Positions 29,524 through 37,800 are shown, counted from the stretch's first letter. The stretch: DNA of 64,000 nt from an uncultured delta proteobacterium (GCA_963775425.1 CAVZJB010000013.1:1-64000), one strand, 5' to 3'. The notes: a model not told the origin generated them from the sequence alone. Program-made: numbers and translations.

Positions 29524-31139
29524 CGCCCGCCGAGATCCTCGCGCAGCGCTCGCTCGTGGCGCTGGTGCCGTGGGCGCCGTCGGGGGACCTGCTCGAGCCC
29601 GCCGCCGGCGTCGCCGTCGCCGCCCTCGACGACGACGCCGAGCTCCTCCTCGACGACGCGGGCCGCGCGCTGTTGTCGAGCTGGACCCGGCGCGACGATC
29701 GCGTGTTCCTCTTCGACGAGGCGCGCCCGTCGCTGCGGCGGCTGTTGCGCGCGGGCGTGGACGTCGCGCGGCCGGTGTGCCGCAATACGCTCGAGCGCCT
29801 CGCGGGCGCCTCCGTCGACGACACGGGCAACGTCACGCGCGATCCCACGGCGGCGCGCGAGCGGGCGCGCCAGATCGTGCACAAGCTCGAGTCGCAGCTC
29901 CAGCGCGTGGACGAGCGCGGACACAAGTTGGTGGCGCGCCTGGAGAACCTGGTCCTGCGCGCGTTCGCCGCGCTCGAGGACCGGGGCATGCCCATCGACG
30001 CCGACGGGTGGCGCGCGCTCGTCGAGGAGGCGCGCGCGAAGGCCGCCGGGGCGCGCGAGCGCCTGCTCGTCGAGGCCGGGGGGCACGTGCCGCGCGACCT
30101 GTTCGGGACGCCGGAGATCAACCTCGACGCCGACGCCGACGTGCGCCAGCTCCTGTTGCGCGTCACCGGCAAGAAGCTCGACGACGTCGCCCGCGGGACG
30201 CTCGCGGGGCTCGGGCACCCGGTGGCCGACGCGCTGCTCGCGTACCGGGAGAGCCACAAGATCGTGTCGACGTACGGCGACGCGTTCCTCTCCCGCGTCG
30301 ACGCGCGCGACGGCCGCGTCCACGCCACCTTCATCCCCCTCGGCGCGTCCACGGGGCGGGTGGCGTCGCGCGATCCGAACCTCCAGAACCTCCCCTCCGA
30401 CGCCCGCTTCCACGCGTGCCTGCGCGCGCCACCCGGCCGCGTGATGGTCACCGCCGACTACGCCACCTGCGAGCTGCGCATCGTCGCCGAGCTGTCGGGC
30501 GACCCGGTGTTCCTCGCGGCGTTCGAGCGCGGCGACGACCTGCACGCCACCGTGGCGTCGACCATGTTCGGCAAGCCCGTCAGCAAGAGCGAGAACCCCG
30601 AGCTCCGGCAGCGCGCCAAGGCCATCAACTTCGGCCTCGTCTACGGCATGGGCCCCGCCGCCCTCGCCAGCTCGTTGAACGTCCGCCTCGACGAGGGCGA
30701 GCGGCTGCTCGAGCAGTACTTCAAGACCTTCCCGCGCGTGCGTGCGTACCTGGAGGGCAACGTCGACACCGCCCTGTCGCGCGGCTGGGCCGAGACCGTG
30801 CTCGGCCGCCGGCTGGTGTTCGACAAGGACACCCTCAAGGGACCGAACGCCCGCGGCGAGCTGTCGCGGATCGCGAAGAACATGCCCATCCAGGGGACGA
30901 GCGCCGACATGACCAAGCTGGCCATGGTGCGCGTGCACGAGAGGCTCGTCGACGCGTTTTCCGGGAGCGCGGGCCTCGTGAACACCATCCACGACGAGCT
31001 GGTGGTCGAGTGCGACGAAGCCGACGGCGACGCCGTCGCCGCCGCCGTCGACCACGAGATGTCCGAGGCCCACCGCACCCTGCTGCGCGCCGTGCCGCCC
31101 CGGGTGGAGGTCCACGTCGGCCCCTCCTGGCACCACTGA
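29520..31139 (+). CDS. Minimal family-A DNA polymerase (539 aa; no 5'-3' nuclease, degenerate 3'-5' exonuclease)
   Basis: TGRVASRDPNLQN, motif A ADYATCELR, motif B RQRAKAINFGLVYG, NMPIQGTSAD, motif C IHDELV. Confidence 0.92.
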   Translation: MTPAEILAQRSLVALVPWAPSGDLLEPAAGVAVAALDDDAELLLDDAGRALLSSWTRRDDRVFLFDEARPSLRRLLRAGVDVARPVCRNTLERLAGASVDDTGNVTRDPTAARERARQIVHKLESQLQRVDERGHKLVARLENLVLRAFAALEDRGMPIDADGWRALVEEARAKAAGARERLLVEAGGHVPRDLFGTPEINLDADADVRQLLLRVTGKKLDDVARGTLAGLGHPVADALLAYRESHKIVSTYGDAFLSRVDARDGRVHATFIPLGASTGRVASRDPNLQNLPSDARFHACLRAPPGRVMVTADYATCELRIVAELSGDPVFLAAFERGDDLHATVASTMFGKPVSKSENPELRQRAKAINFGLVYGMGPAALASSLNVRLDEGERLLEQYFKTFPRVRAYLEGNVDTALSRGWAETVLGRRLVFDKDTLKGPNARGELSRIAKNMPIQGTSADMTKLAMVRVHERLVDAFSGSAGLVNTIHDELVVECDEADGDAVAAAVDHEMSEAHRTLLRAVPPRVEVHVGPSWHH

Positions 31140-31201
31140 CAGGCCCAGCCGGGCCGCCGTCCCCACGGGGCCCGCAGGGGCCACCGGCGCCGGCGACGGG
31201 G

Positions 31202-31229
31202 TTGACCGCTTTTTCGAAAGGGCTAACCC
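31202..31229 (+). promoter_or_regulatory. Putative sigma70-type promoter for nuoJKLN
   Basis: TTGACC-N16-TAACCC, 7 nt before ATG 31237. Confidence 0.45.
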
Positions 31230-31236
31230 GCGACGC

Positions 31237-31725
31237 ATGCTGCCCGTCGTCCCTGTTGTCTTGTGTTGCTGCCTGGCGGCGCTGTCCGCCCTGGGCGTGG
31301 TGCTGTTGCGCCGGACGGTCCACGTGGCCGTGTCGCTCCTCGCGCACTCGCTGTCGCTGGCGGCGCTGTACTTCTCGCTCGACGCGCAGTTCGTCGGCGT
31401 GGCCCAGACGCTCATCTACTCCGGCGCCATCGTGGTGCTCTTCCTTATCGTCGTCGCGCTCCTGCCCACCGGGGGACGCGAAGCGATCACGATGAAGAAC
31501 CAGGCCTCCGGGCTCCTGGTCTTCGCCGCCGTCGCCGTCGCCCTCGGCTCCGCCGTGTGGGCGGCCAAGGTGCCCGCCGTGAGCTCGCGCGGCTTCACCG
31601 TCGAAGAGGTCGGCGCGCCGCTCTTTCACGACCTGATCGCGCCCTTCGAGCTCACCGCGCCGCTGCTGCTCGCCGCCATCGTCGCCGCCATCGCGCTGTG
31701 GCGCCGCCAGGAGGCCCGCCGATGA
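31237..31725 (+). CDS. nuoJ: NuoJ-like membrane subunit
   Basis: LDAQFVGVAQTLIYSGAIVVLFL; LF...PFEL...LLAAIVAAI. Confidence 0.88.
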   Translation: MLPVVPVVLCCCLAALSALGVVLLRRTVHVAVSLLAHSLSLAALYFSLDAQFVGVAQTLIYSGAIVVLFLIVVALLPTGGREAITMKNQASGLLVFAAVAVALGSAVWAAKVPAVSSRGFTVEEVGAPLFHDLIAPFELTAPLLLAAIVAAIALWRRQEARR

Positions 31726-32024
31726 ACCCGCAGCTCTTCGTCCTCGCCGCCGCTTGCTTCATCTTCTGCTGCGGCTGCGCCGGCGTCGTCATGCGCAGAA
31801 ACCCCGTCGCCGTCCTCATGAGCGTGGAGCTCATGATCAACGCGTCCATCATGACGCTGGTCCTCGGCAGCCGCGTGCACGGCCACGCCTCCGGTCAGTC
31901 CACCGCGCTCCTCGTCCTCGTGCTCGGCGCCGCCGAAGCCGTCGTCGGCCTCGCCCTCGCCCTCGCCCTCTTCCGCAACCGCACCCGCGTCGACGTCGAC
32001 GATCCTCAGGAGATCCAGGGATGA
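31722..32024 (+). CDS. nuoK: NuoK-like membrane subunit
   Basis: RRNP, MSVELMINA, GAAEAVVGLAL; ATGA overlaps. Confidence 0.92.
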   Translation: MNPQLFVLAAACFIFCCGCAGVVMRRNPVAVLMSVELMINASIMTLVLGSRVHGHASGQSTALLVLVLGAAEAVVGLALALALFRNRTRVDVDDPQEIQG

Positions 32025-34036
32025 TCCACGACGTCCTCGCCTGGTCCTTCCTCCTCCCCCTCGTCACGCTGCTGTTGTCGGCGTCGGGGCTCCCCGGCCG
32101 CGCCGGCGCGCTGTCGTGGCTGTCGCCCGCCGTCATCTTCGGCCTCGCGCTCGCCTGCCTGCTCGCCGGCGATCTCCACGGCAACGACGTCGTCGTCGCC
32201 GGCTGGGTGCCGTTCCTCCCCGACACCGCGTTCCGCCTCCACGTCGACGCCCTCGCCGACGTCATGCTCCTCGTCGTCGGCGGCGTGTCGACGTGCGTGT
32301 ACGTGTACTCGCTCGGCTACATGAAGGACGACGAGCGGCCCCACCGCTTCTTCGCCTTCCTCGACTTCTTCGTCGCGTCCATGGTGCTGCTCGTCGTCGC
32401 CGGCAACCTCGGCGTGCTCCTCATCGGTTGGACGGGCGTCGGCGTCGCGTCGTTTCTCCTCATCTCCTTTTGGTGGCAGCGCGGGGAGCCCCTGCAGGCG
32501 GGCTTCCTCGCCCTCGGCGCGAACGCCATCGGCGACGCCGCGCTCCTCGTCGCCGTCGTCCTCATCCCCAAGGGCGCCGGCAACCTCGCCGGGCTCGGCG
32601 GCATGGACATGTCGTCGGTGCCCGGCGGCGGCGCCACCATCGCCTGGTGCCTCGTCATCGCCGCCTGCGCCAAGAGCGCGCAGGGGCCGCTTTGGTGGTG
32701 GCTGCCCTCGGCCATGGCCGGCCCCACGCCGGTGTCGGCCCTCATCCACGCCGCCACCATGGTCGCCGCCGGCGTCTATCTGCTCGTGCGCACCTCGGGC
32801 CTGCTCATGCACTCCGACGTCGTCATGTGGAACATCACGCTCATCGGCCTGTGCACGGCCATCGGCGGCGGCGTCGCGTCTTTGTGGCAGACCAACTTCA
32901 AGCGCGGCCTCGCGTACTCCACGGTCTCGCAGCTCGGCTGGATGTTCACGGCCATCGGCGTCGGTGCGCCCCTCGCGGCGCTCTTCCACCTCATCACGCA
33001 CGCGAGCTTCAAGGCCATGCTCTTCCTGTCCGCGGGCACCGTCATCGCGGCCACCCACCACGAGGAGGACATCCGCAAGATGGGCGGCCTGCGCAAGAAG
33101 CTGCCCATGGCGCACGCCTACTTCGTGCTCGGCACGCTCTCGCTCATCGGAGCGCCGTTCATCACCGCGGGCGCGTTCTCCAAGGACGCCATGCTGCAGG
33201 GCGCGCTGTCGTCGCAGTGGCCGTTCATCGGCTGGATCCTGCTGGTGTCGACGGTGATCACCGGCGCCTACGCCGGCCGCCTGTTGTTCGGCGCCTTCTA
33301 CGGCCCCGAGGGCGAAGCGGTGAAGCACGCGCACGCCCCGGGCGCCTTGTTCGATTGGCCGCTGCTGCCGCTCGCCGCCGGCGCCGTCGCGCTCGGCTGG
33401 GTCCAGGCGCAGACCCACGCGCTGTCGCGCTTGCTCGGCGGCGAGATCGACGCGGACCTCCCCCACGACGGCATGGCCTGGGGCGTGATGGCCGGCGCGT
33501 TCGCCGCCGGCCTCGTCGGCGTCGGCATCGGCGCCCTCATCGCGCGCACGCGCACCAAGTGCCTGCCGGCGCCGCCGCAGGCGCTCACGGGCGCGCTGCT
33601 CGGCGAGCTCAAGGCCATGCCCGACAGCTTCGCCTCCATCCACGACGGCCGCGTCGGGCGCTATGCGCTCATCGGCCTCGTCGGCACGGCCCTCATCGTC
33701 TACCTGGCGCAGCGGCCGCCGTCGGTGGCGCCCGCGGGCGACCGCGCCGCGGTGGGCATGAAGGCCCCGGAGCGCGAGCGCCCGCAGAAGAAGAAGCCGC
33801 GGGCCATCGACCCGCGCCAGGCCAAGGCCAAGGCCATCGAGCGCCTGCAGAACATGCTCCACGCGCGCACGCCCGCCGAGCTCAAGCGCCGCCTCGAGCA
33901 GCAGCGCAAGCACGCCGAGGAGCACGGCAAGGACCCGTCGAAGCTCGACGCCGGCGGCAACCCCCGCCGCGGGCCCGGCAAGCTCGTCCCGGTGCAGCCC
34001 AAGAAGCCCGGCGGAGACCAGGGGAGGACGCCATGA
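32021..34036 (+). CDS. nuoL: NuoL-like antiporter subunit (atypical)
   Basis: YSLGYM, KSAQGPL..WLPSAMAGPTPVSALIHAATMV, LAYSTVSQLG, HLITHASFKA, DIRKMGGL, FSKD; WTGVG instead of WEGVG; 108-aa basic tail. Confidence 0.88.
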   Translation: MIHDVLAWSFLLPLVTLLLSASGLPGRAGALSWLSPAVIFGLALACLLAGDLHGNDVVVAGWVPFLPDTAFRLHVDALADVMLLVVGGVSTCVYVYSLGYMKDDERPHRFFAFLDFFVASMVLLVVAGNLGVLLIGWTGVGVASFLLISFWWQRGEPLQAGFLALGANAIGDAALLVAVVLIPKGAGNLAGLGGMDMSSVPGGGATIAWCLVIAACAKSAQGPLWWWLPSAMAGPTPVSALIHAATMVAAGVYLLVRTSGLLMHSDVVMWNITLIGLCTAIGGGVASLWQTNFKRGLAYSTVSQLGWMFTAIGVGAPLAALFHLITHASFKAMLFLSAGTVIAATHHEEDIRKMGGLRKKLPMAHAYFVLGTLSLIGAPFITAGAFSKDAMLQGALSSQWPFIGWILLVSTVITGAYAGRLLFGAFYGPEGEAVKHAHAPGALFDWPLLPLAAGAVALGWVQAQTHALSRLLGGEIDADLPHDGMAWGVMAGAFAAGLVGVGIGALIARTRTKCLPAPPQALTGALLGELKAMPDSFASIHDGRVGRYALIGLVGTALIVYLAQRPPSVAPAGDRAAVGMKAPERERPQKKKPRAIDPRQAKAKAIERLQNMLHARTPAELKRRLEQQRKHAEEHGKDPSKLDAGGNPRRGPGKLVPVQPKKPGGDQGRTP

Positions 34037-35346
34037 CGCTCTTGAGCTGGGTCGAGCGCGCCGAGCTGCTGCTCGTCGTCGTCGCCCTCGCGCTCCTCGT
34101 GTTCGCGCCGCGCCTGGAGCGGCTCCCCTTCGTCACCGCGGGCGTCGGCCTCGTCGGCGCCGCCGTCGCCATCGGCTGCGGCGTGCTCGCGGGCGGCGCC
34201 GAGCGCTTCGCCCTCGTCGTCGCCGGCGGCTGCGTCGCCGCCGCCATGCTGCTCCTGCACGCGGCCGAGATGTTCGACGACCGCCAACGCCCCGAGGCCG
34301 CGGCCCTCGTCGTCATCGGCGGCATCGGCGCCGTGGTGCTCGCGACGGGCGCGACGCTCCTCGAGCTCGCCGTCGGCGTGGAGATGCTCTCGCTCACCGC
34401 GGCCGCGCTCGTCGCCCTGGGCCACGGCCAGCGGCCGCTCGAGGCCGGCTTCAAGTACTTCGTGCTCACGGCGGTGACGTTCGCCACGTTCCTCTTCGGC
34501 ATGGCGCTCGTGTTCGTGGGCACGGGCTCGCTCGCGCTGCCCGGCCCGGGCTCGGCGTCGCACGGCATGCAGCTCGTCGTCGCCGCCGGCGCCGGCCTCA
34601 TGGTCATCGGCCTCGCGTTCAAGCTCGCCGTCATCCCCGTGCACTTCGGCGCGCTCGACGCGTACACCGCGGGGCCTTCGAGCTTCGTCGGCTTCATCAT
34701 GGTCGCGTCCAAGCTCGGCGCGGCGTTGGCGTTGCTCCGCCTTGCCACGGCCATGGGCGCGTCCATCGAGTCGCTCTTGATGGGCATCGGCATCGGCACC
34801 ATCGCCTTCGGCGTCGTCGCCAGCTTCGCCCAGACCGATCTGCGGCGCCTGCTCGCCTACTCGGCCGTCGCGCACGCCGGCTTCCTCGCGCTCGGCGCCG
34901 GCAGCCACGCGCCCGACGCCGTTCGCTTCTACATCGTCGCCTACGGCAGCGCGGCGCTGTTGTGCTTCGCCGCCCTCGCCGGCACCGGCACCGGCGGCTT
35001 CCCGATCACCGCGCTCGGCGGCGCGCGCGGCCTCGGGCGCGGGCGCTCGCTCGCGCTGCTCCTCGGCCTCTTGTCGCTCGCGGGCGTCCCGCCCACGCCG
35101 GGCTTCTTCGCCAAGCTCGCGGTGCTCTCCGCGGCTTTCCATACGTGGGGAACGCTCGCCACCGCCATCGCAGCCCTGGGCGGCGTCGTCGGCGTCATCT
35201 ACTACCTGAGGCCCATGCCCGACCTGTTGGCGTCGACGACGACCAAGGAGCACGACGGCGGCGGCCTCTCCGCTGCCTTGTGGGTCGTCATCGTCGTCGC
35301 GATCGGCATCGCCCCCGCCCTGATCTGGAAGCTCTCGCACTTCTGA
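34033..35346 (+). CDS. nuoN: NuoN-like antiporter subunit
   Basis: GVEMLSL, EAGFKYF, FKLAVIPVH, ASK, RRLLAYSAVAHAG, SLAGVPPTPGFFAK, YYLR. Confidence 0.88.
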   Translation: MTLLSWVERAELLLVVVALALLVFAPRLERLPFVTAGVGLVGAAVAIGCGVLAGGAERFALVVAGGCVAAAMLLLHAAEMFDDRQRPEAAALVVIGGIGAVVLATGATLLELAVGVEMLSLTAAALVALGHGQRPLEAGFKYFVLTAVTFATFLFGMALVFVGTGSLALPGPGSASHGMQLVVAAGAGLMVIGLAFKLAVIPVHFGALDAYTAGPSSFVGFIMVASKLGAALALLRLATAMGASIESLLMGIGIGTIAFGVVASFAQTDLRRLLAYSAVAHAGFLALGAGSHAPDAVRFYIVAYGSAALLCFAALAGTGTGGFPITALGGARGLGRGRSLALLLGLLSLAGVPPTPGFFAKLAVLSAAFHTWGTLATAIAALGGVVGVIYYLRPMPDLLASTTTKEHDGGGLSAALWVVIVVAIGIAPALIWKLSHF

Positions 35347-35406
35347 GCCACTCCGTCTGTTCCCCTACCAGAACAGGTGCGCGTCAGGCCGGTGTACGAT
35401 CGGCGG

Positions 35407-37800
35407 ATGCGCCTCCGTCACGCCATCTCGTCGATGTTCGCGCTCTTCGCGTTCTTCGCCCCGGTCTGCGTCTCCGGCAACGCTCGCGCCGCGACCATCA
35501 CGGTGACGTCTGCCGACGGCGGCGCCACGGTGGACGGCGCGTGCTCGCTCCTCGAGGCCGTCAGCGCCGCCGCCAGTGACGCCGCCGTCGACGGCTGCGA
35601 CGCAGGCAACGGCATCGACGAGATCGTGTTTGATCCTTCGCTCGCCGGCGCGAGCATCGCCCTGTCGAGCTCGCTGTCCACGTCTCAGGCGGTCACCATC
35701 GACGGCAGCGCCGCGCCCGGGGTGAGCATCTCGTTTTCGCCGCAGTTCGCCGGCGTCCGCAACAGCGCGGCGCTCACGCTGCGCGGGCTCACGTTCGCCG
35801 GGAGCGCCGTCGACGGGCCGCTGATCGAGCCGAGCGCCGCGCTCACCCTCGACACTGTCGCCATCATCAACAACAGCGTGCAGTTCGGCGCGCTCATCGC
35901 GCCCGCAAGCTCGAGGGCGTCGCTCAACCTCACCGACGTCACCATCGAGGACGACACGCTCGGCTCGGACCCCGCGCTCACCTGGACCGACGGCGGCGCG
36001 CTCACCGCAGACCGCGTCGCCTTCCGGCGCCTGACCGGCGTGGCGCTGGATGTGGCGTCGAGCGGCCTGAGCCCCAACGCCGCCCTGCGCGACATCATCG
36101 TCGAGGACGTCGCCGCCGTCGGTGACGACGTCGTCGCCCACGTCGCCGGCGGCACGGTCGAGGGCTTCACGGCGACCAACGTCACGACGGGGTCCACCGG
36201 GATCGCGTTGAGCTTCGAGGCGAGCAACCTCGGCACCATCCAGGTCACCGACCTCACCGTCGACGGCTGCGCCGGCGCGTCCTGCGTGCTGTTCGACGGC
36301 GCCGGCTCCATCACCAGCGTGCTCACGCGTCCGACGGTGACCAACTCCGCCGCCACGACCGCGATCACGTTGGACGTCTCGAGCGGCATCGTCCGCGTCG
36401 TCGACGCCGACATCGACAGCTCCGCCGGCGGGCTCGTCGCCGTCAACAACGGCGGCTCCGGGCGCATGGAGGTGGAGGGGCTTTTCCAGCGCGACGTCGG
36501 CGACGCCGGGCGGACGACGTCGACGCTGGTGCTGCGGGCCGACGGCGCGGGCACCACGGTGATCGCGAGCAACATCACGGTCGAGCGCAACGTCATCTCG
36601 ACGAGCGCCCTCGTGCCCACCGTGGAGATCAACGCGGCGGGGTCGCTCGGCACCCTCAAGGTCGACGACATCGACGTCATCGACTCCGAGGGGCCCGAGC
36701 CACTGGAGGTGCTCGGGAGCGAGATCGGCAACGTCACCGTGACCCGCGCGTCCGTCGTGGGGACGACGGGCGGGGCGCACGCGCTGCGCGTGAGGACGAC
36801 GGGGAGCGGCATCGCGACGGTCGCGCGCATGCTCGTCGAGGACAACGCGGTGACCGGGGCGCAGGTGAGCGTGGAAGGCGGCACGGTGACGGTCACCGAG
36901 GCCGTCGTCGTCGGCGGCGACGCGGTGTCGATCGCCGCGGGCCGCGTGCGCAACACCACCATCGCGCTCGCGGACACCGGCATCACGTGCACCGGCGCGG
37001 GGTCACCGCGGATCGAGAATGATCTCATCGGTGACGACGTCGTGACGGCGAGCTCCGGCTGCGGCGCGCTCACCGGGAGCGGCAACGTCATCGGCGTCGA
37101 CCCGCTCTACCTCGCCCCTTCTCTCGTCGGCGGCGACTTCCACACGGGGGACGGCTCGCCCGCCATCGACGCCGGCGTGGTTCCCTCGTTCCCCGCCCTC
37201 TCCACCGTCGACTTCGACGGCAACCCCCGCGTCCAGGGCAACGCCGTCGACAGCGGCGCGTTCGAGCACCCCGACCCCGCCGGCGAAGGCGAAGGCGAGG
37301 GAGAGGGAGAAGGCGAGGGAGAAGGCGAGGGAGAGGGCGAAGGCGAGGGAGAGGGCGAGGGAGAGGGCGAGGGCGAAGGCGAGGGAGAAGGCGAGGGCGA
37401 AGGCGAAGGCGAGGGCGAGGGAGAAGGCGAAGGAGAAGGCGAAGGAGAAGGTGACGTCGGCGAGGGAGAGGGCGAGGGAGAAGGTGACGTCGGCGAGGGA
37501 GAGGGCGAGGGAGAAGGCGAGGGCGAGGGAGAGGGCGAGGGCGAGGGAGAAGGCGAAGGAGAAGGCGAAGGAGAAGGCGACGTCGGCGAGGGAGAGGGCG
37601 AGGGAGAAGGTGACGTCGGCGAGGGAGAGGGCGAAGGCGACGCCGGCGAGGGAGAGGGCGAGGGAGGCGGCGCGGCGCCGCCCGGGTGCGGCTGCGGCGC
37701 GACCTCGGGGGACGGCGGCGCGCTGTTCTTCTTCCTCGCGGCTCTCGCGCTGCGGCCCGGCCGGCGCGTTTGCGGAAGGCGGCGCGCGAAGGAGCTCTGA
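35407..37800 (+). CDS. Secreted beta-helix surface protein (CSLREA-like N-terminus, choice-of-anchor-Q-like domain, poly-GE, MYXO-CTERM)
   Basis: Signal peptide; [10 protein letters not shown]; SPAIDAG...DFDGNPR...DSGAFE; GE tract; GCGC + hydrophobic + RR. Confidence 0.85.
37282..37665 (+). repeat. Poly(Gly-Glu) coding hexamer repeat (~128 codons)
   Basis: GG(C/A)GA(A/G) array with GDV/GDA interruptions. Confidence 0.95.

Follow-up and report, generated by a model that had tools for sequence, protein, structure and literature searches.

A nuoJKLN locus without nuoM and with a short NuoL lateral helix: a candidate two-module complex I in a Myxococcota-labelled lineage

Complex I is usually presented as an enzyme with three antiporter-like pumps that moves 4 H+ per 2 e-. 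The window examined here, i.e. a stretch of 64,000 nt from contig C13 of genome G000 (8.26 Mb, 18 contigs, 94.55% complete), carries the genes nuoJ, nuoK, nuoL and nuoN in direct succession, with no nuoM. It is quite probable that the products of these four genes form the distal membrane arm of the organism's only NADH-oxidizing (NuoE/F/G-containing) complex I, an arm that lacks NuoM and would hold two antiporter-like modules. This reading builds on gene content, on the gene order and its conservation, on the length of a linker in NuoL and on the retention of charged residues. Assembly of the subunits, and electron transfer from NADH to quinone coupled to proton pumping, are what we infer from the sequences. 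The fuller picture is put forward with a slight leaning only: a natural complex I with two antiporter-like subunits, in which NuoL would lie on NuoN and about 3 H+ would be moved per 2 e-. Such an enzyme would be the sole complex I in some members of the lineage and would occur in others, including G000, beside a form with two NuoM and without NuoE, F and G.

Gene order and linker length in the lineage

The module and the segments of NuoL that matter below are located as follows (window coordinates; TM, transmembrane helix; AF2, AlphaFold2 model; pLDDT, its local confidence score).

31237..31725, + strand: nuoJ, 162 aa; PF00499, 93 bits, full profile covered
31722..32024, + strand: nuoK, 100 aa; PF00420, 79 bits; NF004320 NuoK, 90 bits (cut-off 57)
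32021..34036, + strand: nuoL, 671 aa; PF00361 and PF00662; TIGR01974 NuoL, 421.3 bits (cut-off 407.5)
32432..32434, + strand: codon of NuoL Thr138, at the site of the conserved TM5 Glu; 'GWTGVG' aligned to E. coli 'GWEGVG'
33479..33544, + strand: NuoL TM15, residues 487-508; AF2 helix, block-mean pLDDT 92-96 over 491-510; the Nqo12 match ends here
33545..33637, + strand: lateral-helix linker of NuoL, residues 509-539, 31 aa, placed by alignment; AF2 loop 509-519 and helix 520-540
33638..33712, + strand: NuoL TM16 with 'IHDGRVGRY', residues 540-564; aligns with 'LQSGNVQAY' (canonical) and 'AQSGRVQDY' (two-M)
33716..34033, + strand: C-terminal tail of NuoL, basic and Pro-rich, residues 566-671; 106 aa with 26 K/R, 12 D/E and 15 P
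34033..35346, + strand: nuoN, 437 aa; PF00361; best NCBIfam model TIGR01770 NuoN, 191 bits

An earlier, sequence-only reading of the window had described a J-K-L-N order joined by ATGA overlaps. The four reading frames stand exactly as it placed them, and the ATGA that forms the start/stop overlap was read directly from the sequence at each junction (31722 for J/K, 32021 for K/L and 34033 for L/N). The same reading had noticed neither nuoA-I nor nuoM in the window. This extends to the whole of contig C13, where profile scans with PF00361, PF00146 and PF00499 together with tblastn matched J, K, L and N only.

The direct succession of nuoL and nuoN is not peculiar to G000. In all nine loci that could be compared, from nine assemblies and two families, nuoN follows nuoL, either overlapping it by 4 nt or starting no more than 32 nt behind it; the contigs of three further genomes (G007, G009 and G010) are too short for the junction to be judged. 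NuoM was searched for with TIGR01972 above its cut-off in six genomes (G000, G002, G004, G005, G006 and G017). It was found only as a pair inside operons with two nuoM genes, in G000, G004 and G006, and no match above the cut-off was obtained in G002 (98% complete), G005 (96%) or G017 (89%). Each of these last three has one strong NuoH and one strong NuoF, to which G005 adds a weak NuoF-like match. In 5/5 genomes of the sister family f6, one NuoM scores above the cut-off and lies between L and N, and G039, from the same phylum, has the order A...L-M-N. The retention of NuoM in both indicates that its loss is derived. As the L-N loci differ from one another by 37-46% in sequence, the M-less state must also be old. 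A relative with a full-length helix and nuoM at this locus, the finding that would have pointed to a recent deletion, did not turn up: all nine loci combine the L-N order with a short linker.

The lineage is labelled Myxococcota, with one relative labelled Myxococcales bacterium. Orthologues of the window NuoL (E <= 1e-95) occur in 11 of the 401 sampled genomes of the phylum, all of them in families f1 and f3; the first look of this search was set more strictly. Scores in the representative library fall from 668 bits to 307 once six or seven clusters have been passed.

The second line of evidence is the linker between TM15 and the 'IHDGRVGRY'-type motif, which in canonical NuoL contains the lateral helix. 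The 31 residues counted for it in the sequence-only reading (33545-33637) were confirmed as residues 509-539. The length was compared across 161 aligned NuoL sequences, i.e. 150 representatives, the nearest in a library of 1.84 billion proteins, and 11 sequences from the loci. It is 33 residues or fewer in 15 sequences, 42-50 in 3, 63-88 in 125 and 93 or more in 10; 8 sequences are truncated. All 15 with the shortest linkers belong to the clade of the window NuoL, and every L-N locus of this clade falls at 25-32 residues. At the place where two rows of ordinary length begin the lateral helix with 'W.[FL]DE.Y', the window NuoL has a 'K.LP.P' stretch. AF2 predicts a linker helix of 21 residues (520-540, low pLDDT of 41-48), followed by a TM16 helix at 545-563, also with low confidence.

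As a control, the genes downstream of NuoL were classified by tblastn in 156 unrelated loci. All 116 control loci with a complete NuoL and the L-M-N order have a linker of 67-79 residues. The single L-N control locus, with a linker of 31, is a duplicate of the G005 contig. The linker reaches 100 residues in the L-M-M-N operon of G000 itself, on contig C16. Linker length thus tracks gene order: short with L-N, 67-79 with L-M-N and 100 in the organism's own L-M-M-N operon. However, the only L-M-M-N control locus (L096) has a linker of 67, i.e. an extra M-like gene without a longer helix, so that length alone is no proof of subunit number. A peptide-pattern search for wider relatives returned L026 as the only true ortholog, and this is again the contig of L019 (G005). 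The 75 other loci found in this way carry ordinary NuoL, mostly from Verrucomicrobiota, and were reused as controls.

Some NuoL relatives have linkers of intermediate length. P0005 (42 residues) and P0150 (50 residues) appear genuine and could mark other lineages with a reduced arm; a metagenome scan with P0150 yielded only relatives at 41-58% identity. P0143 (42 residues) appears to be a frame-shifted, low-complexity call.

The C-terminal tail of the window NuoL varies in length among family members, and G017 and P0003 have none. AF2 places two helices in it with confidence, at 598-634, with a block-mean pLDDT of 78-83 over 601-630. By canonical topology the tail would presumably face the periplasm, an odd place for so basic a segment.

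Subunit identity, pathway residues and the predicted NuoL-NuoN contact

The nuoL product scores 421-440 bits on NuoL models and at most 250 bits on MrpA, HyfB and NdhF3 models. HyfB (173 bits), HyfD (201 bits) and NdhF3 (174 bits) all stay far below NuoL. The MrpA models, with cut-offs of 920-1117, do not exceed 250 bits; their matches stop by NuoL residue 469, and no MrpB-like C-terminal domain was seen. Among solved chains, E. coli NuoL (1e-81) and T. thermophilus Nqo12 come closest, whereas DabB2 reaches only 7e-32 with the same query. Residues 10-508 align to residues 7-512 of the Nqo12 chain, up to the end of TM15. For the nuoN product, TIGR01770 (NuoN) gives 191 bits, below its cut-off of 332.6, vs 63 bits for NuoM; MrpD models give at most 63 bits. 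In a maximum-likelihood tree of 20 antiporter-like proteins, the nuoL product groups with NuoL sequences and the nuoN product falls in the NuoN clade (support 98/99). NuoJ (PF00499) and NuoK (PF00420) are both above their cut-offs. A clustering with Mrp, Hyf or Ehr subunits, which the sequence-only reading had kept in mind, was not found in the scores on the MrpA, HyfB and NdhF3 models.

Most of the residues of the proton pathway are in place. In NuoL, every clade member retains the residues that correspond to E. coli D178, K229, H254, H334, H338, K342, K399 and D400. The Glu and Lys motifs of NuoN had been called intact from the sequence alone, and the alignment to E. coli NuoN bears this out: the TM5 Glu and the Lys of TM7, TM8 and TM12 are all retained. 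The same had been claimed for the Tyr of NuoJ and the Glu pair of NuoK. Here the residues themselves are present in the translations, the Tyr in the stretch 'IYSGAIVVLF' and the two membrane Glu in 'SVELM' and 'AAEAVV'. The Tyr is presumably the conserved TM3 Tyr of NuoJ, and the Glu pair presumably equals E36/E72 of NuoK.

The clear departure is the TM5 site of NuoL, where Thr138 stands. This site is Thr or Ala in 12/12 clade members with a residue there, and Glu in 128/146 other NuoL; the remaining 18/146, of ordinary length and among the nearest representatives, have Gly, Ala, Ser or Ile. Across nine assemblies no frame is broken, with identities of 54-63% for NuoL and 45-62% for NuoN. From its sequence, the module looks functional.

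The contact between NuoL and NuoN was modelled by a pair fold of NuoL residues 3-565 with NuoN, in three runs and with 3 controls, using our own alignments. The median score of the three runs is 0.63, vs 0.00 for the best control. Of the solved complexes 116/157 reach this mark, of the mismatched pairs 2/215, a calibration that is only rough with own alignments. The runs share at least 96% of their contacts, and the pLDDT of the partner is at least 80. The predicted interface is formed by TM5/TM6 (131-181) and the hairpin 61-66 of NuoL, and by residues 352-400 and 427-436 of NuoN. In this model Thr138 of NuoL meets the loop at the TM12 break of NuoN, and linker residues 534-535 of NuoL also contact NuoN. 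The modelled interface gives the geometry and the polarity of neighboring antiporter-like subunits, as that arrangement is described in PMC7419157.

The remaining complex I genes of G000 and the competing explanations

A check for a separate nuo set in the genome, as proposed in the sequence-only reading, revealed two sets. Contig C12 carries a scattered NADH-type set in four groups (nuoG-H, nuoE-F, nuoI and nuoA-B-C-(114-aa ORF)-D, ORF being an open reading frame), each flanked by unrelated genes. The genes of the NADH-type complex are spread over at least five loci, and nuoF is present once in G000. The second set, at C16:757949-770456 (L002:5950-18456), is a self-contained operon nuoA-B-C-D-I-H-J-K-L-M-M-N without E, F and G. 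G000 therefore carries genes for both a two-module and a four-module arm. According to the genome scans, the J-K-L-N of the window is the only remaining canonical J/K/L/N set for the C12 genes. In G017, a relative from another family, a single contig carries G-H-I-J-K-L-N contiguously, with a histidine kinase gene in convergent orientation behind them. The lack of any other J/K/L/N for the C12 set and the contiguity in G017 together indicate that the module belongs to the NADH-type complex I.

A further, stand-alone cluster, at C11:401944-408252 (L003:5944-12252), consists of a very divergent J-like gene (PF00499, 42 bits) and, after it, three antiporter-like genes (PF00361, 34-74 bits). In the tree, the members of this trio come out as L-like, M-like and N-like, with branch lengths of about 3 changes per site. 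Its flanks are unrelated genes (a DUF4215 protein, rpoZ and ksgA).

Two observations on other genes of the genome may be added. The 114-aa ORF between nuoC and nuoD (C12:163057-163401; L103:4558-4902) has a coding-like codon bias and no Pfam match. At C6:50458-52546 and C16:1036066-1036929, tblastn and PF00146 detected weak NuoB/C/D-like and NuoH-like genes that possibly belong to a hydrogenase-related complex.

Four other explanations were weighed against the M-less distal arm. The sequence-only reading had described the module as stand-alone and had considered an independent ion or solute pump. It is true that the four genes lie apart from the other nuo genes in G000 and in most family members. 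However, if they formed a membrane module (pump or antiporter) unattached to NuoA-I, the C12 set with its E, F and G would be left without J, K, L and N. In addition, the genes adjoin G-H-I in G017, and the sequences score as NuoL, NuoK and NuoJ and not as Mrp, Hyf or Dab. The remaining subunit genes of the complex are scattered as well, so that separation is the rule in this genome and not a mark of independence. An independent module is considered improbable, and the description as stand-alone was given up. The other role that had been suggested, an alternative arm for the main complex I, was imprecise: the module would be the sole arm of the NADH-type complex, and the C16 operon has its own L-M-M-N. 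An assembly artefact or a recent deletion limited to G000, which is after all a draft in 18 contigs, was rejected and has a negligible probability, because eight other assemblies from two families show that junction as well as the short linker.

A complex that retains three antiporter-like subunits with a borrowed NuoM, taken from the C16 operon or from the M-like protein of C11, is very improbable, slightly more so than an independent module. There are two NuoM genes in another operon of G000, G004 and G006, a C11-type M-like gene also occurs in G002 (a weak match of 67.8 bits), and C11_b groups with NuoM sequences in the tree. Against this, no NuoM exceeds the cut-off in G002, G005 or G017, and the 100-residue linker of the C16 NuoL fits the two NuoM of its own operon. 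The 31-residue linker of the window NuoL is too short to span an inserted subunit. The C11 genes, at about 3 changes per site, form an L/M/N-like trio of their own with a J-like gene of their own. A decaying or non-pumping remnant, i.e. an arm that is assembled and no longer translocates protons, would be in line with the exchange of the TM5 Glu of NuoL for Thr or Ala throughout the clade, and with scores of NuoN and NuoL under some curated cut-offs. On the other hand, every other pathway residue that was checked is invariant in the clade, the frames have stayed intact in nine assemblies at 45-63% identity, and 18/146 NuoL of ordinary length also do without the TM5 Glu. Moreover, the set in question is the sole complex I of G002, G005 and G017. 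A remnant is consequently rated about as improbable as an independent module. The proposal of an adapted two-antiporter (L+N) arm, neither decayed nor collapsed, is upheld by the nine L-N loci with short linkers, whose NuoL are 54-63% identical, and by the retained pathway residues.

Several points nevertheless count against the M-less, two-module complex I. The evidence for it is genomic or predicted throughout. All genomes are metagenome assemblies, and an unassembled nuoM is conceivable, although it would be needed in every one of them. The M-like protein of C11 keeps a small chance of being a partner. Both antiporter-like subunits are divergent, with NuoN at 191 bits on a curated cut-off of 332.6 and NuoL at 440 bits on a stricter equivalog cut-off of 556. 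With the TM5 Glu of NuoL lost, an altered or weakened coupling of the last pump is possible. The linker helix and TM16 are modelled at a pLDDT of 41-48 only, and TM16 lies outside the confident contacts of the pair fold. The success of that fold may itself reflect likeness to the N-M and M-L interfaces of solved structures. Compared with the canonical linker, 44 residues are missing, whereas about 25 would be expected for the width of one subunit; TM16 can therefore not dock as it does in the known structures. Lastly, the energetic rationale given below leans on the type of quinone, for which no marker reached its cut-off.

The surroundings of the module were also inspected. The G+C content of the window is 68-77% (2-kb windows). 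The upstream flank had been assigned to a PolA gene, and a family-A DNA polymerase domain was indeed found in the gene that precedes nuoJ, separated from it by the following region.

31140..31236, + strand: intergenic region of 97 nt between the family-A polymerase gene and nuoJ, from sequence reading

In the relatives G006 and G002, the polymerase gene likewise lies upstream, but at a distance of several kb. The promoter that had been postulated for the module did not emerge: a sigma-70 consensus scan of 30900-35700 returned 0 sites, with a consensus that need not fit the host phylum. The downstream gene (35377-37800) codes for a protein of 807 aa whose start is signal-like; it matches a beta-helix weakly and carries a long Gly-Glu repeat close to its C-terminus.

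The proposed arm and its relation to known systems

In the proposed course of events, the middle antiporter-like subunit NuoM would have been lost in this lineage, and with NuoM gone, NuoL would pack directly against NuoN. The order along the arm would become A/H/J/K, then N, then L. The clamp of NuoL (TM15, lateral helix and TM16) would have shrunk accordingly, from about 75 residues to about 31. The expression 'shortened to match' used in the sequence-only reading was roughly right in this respect; the cut of about 44 residues exceeds, however, the 25-26 residues per added NuoM. TM16 would consequently dock nearer to the L/N boundary than in the known structures. With one pump module fewer, the stoichiometry would probably be about 3 instead of 4 H+ per 2 e-. 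More driving force would then be available per proton, which may help where the proton-motive force is high or the quinone has a low potential. As for the quinone, PF02621 of the futalosine pathway had no match in the genome, and the other markers stay below their cut-offs (MenA: 49.5 and 29.3 bits vs 102; UbiG: at most 48.6 vs 103).

The arm shares the J, K, L and N families with the canonical complex I of E. coli and T. thermophilus (3rko, 4he8). Its NuoL aligns with Nqo12 through TM1-TM15 and keeps the charged residues of the central axis, and the remaining subunits A-I, including E, F and G, are present in G000 as in the known enzyme. In contrast to the canonical enzyme, the window form has no NuoM. 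Where the canonical linker has 67-79 residues, its NuoL has 31, together with a Thr instead of the TM5 Glu and a basic tail of about 106 residues.

The natural departures of complex I that are described in PMC9040806 add pumps, as in the 2M and 'green' forms and in the five-pump form of Manganitrophus. The 2M form combines a second NuoM with a 26-residue insertion in the lateral helix of NuoL (PMC9040806), with which the 100-residue linker of the C16 NuoL agrees. The window locus has neither the two nuoM nor the long helix of the 2M form; the C16 operon has both and represents such a form. In the 2M form, too, the number of antiporter-like subunits varies together with helix length. The direction is opposite, however, with one module added there and one removed here, and with a change of +25/26 residues vs -44. 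Also, the M-less set of G000 includes E, F and G, which are absent from its 2M operon.

In the Mrp antiporters, MrpA resembles NuoL and MrpD resembles NuoN, and the MrpA-MrpD pair consists of two antiporter-like subunits braced by an amphipathic helix between TM15 and TM16 (PMC7419157). By analogy, the L+N arm would likewise have two braced subunits and go back to an Mrp-like subunit count. The proteins of the window are nevertheless set apart from Mrp by their scores (NuoL 421-440 vs at most 250 bits; NuoN 191 vs at most 63 bits). Their neighbors are nuoJ and nuoK, contiguous with nuoG-H-I in G017; mrpE/F/G were not searched for.

In the open literature, to which the search was confined, no description was found of a complex I without NuoM or with two antiporter-like subunits. 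Spero et al. 2015 (PMC4453560), in the part of the text that was available, makes no mention of Myxococcales or of a missing NuoM.

If the two-module complex I is real, the membrane arm would be modular in both directions, with a module removed and the reduced state kept by selection across two families. It would also offer a natural test of coupling models, i.e. of one proton per module vs the exit of all protons at the distal subunit, and it would reveal what portion of the lateral helix is indispensable. Automated metabolic annotation would score such genomes as having an 'incomplete' complex I. In organisms such as G000, one cell would hold a 'low-gear' (two-module) and a 'high-gear' (four-module) version of the same machine.

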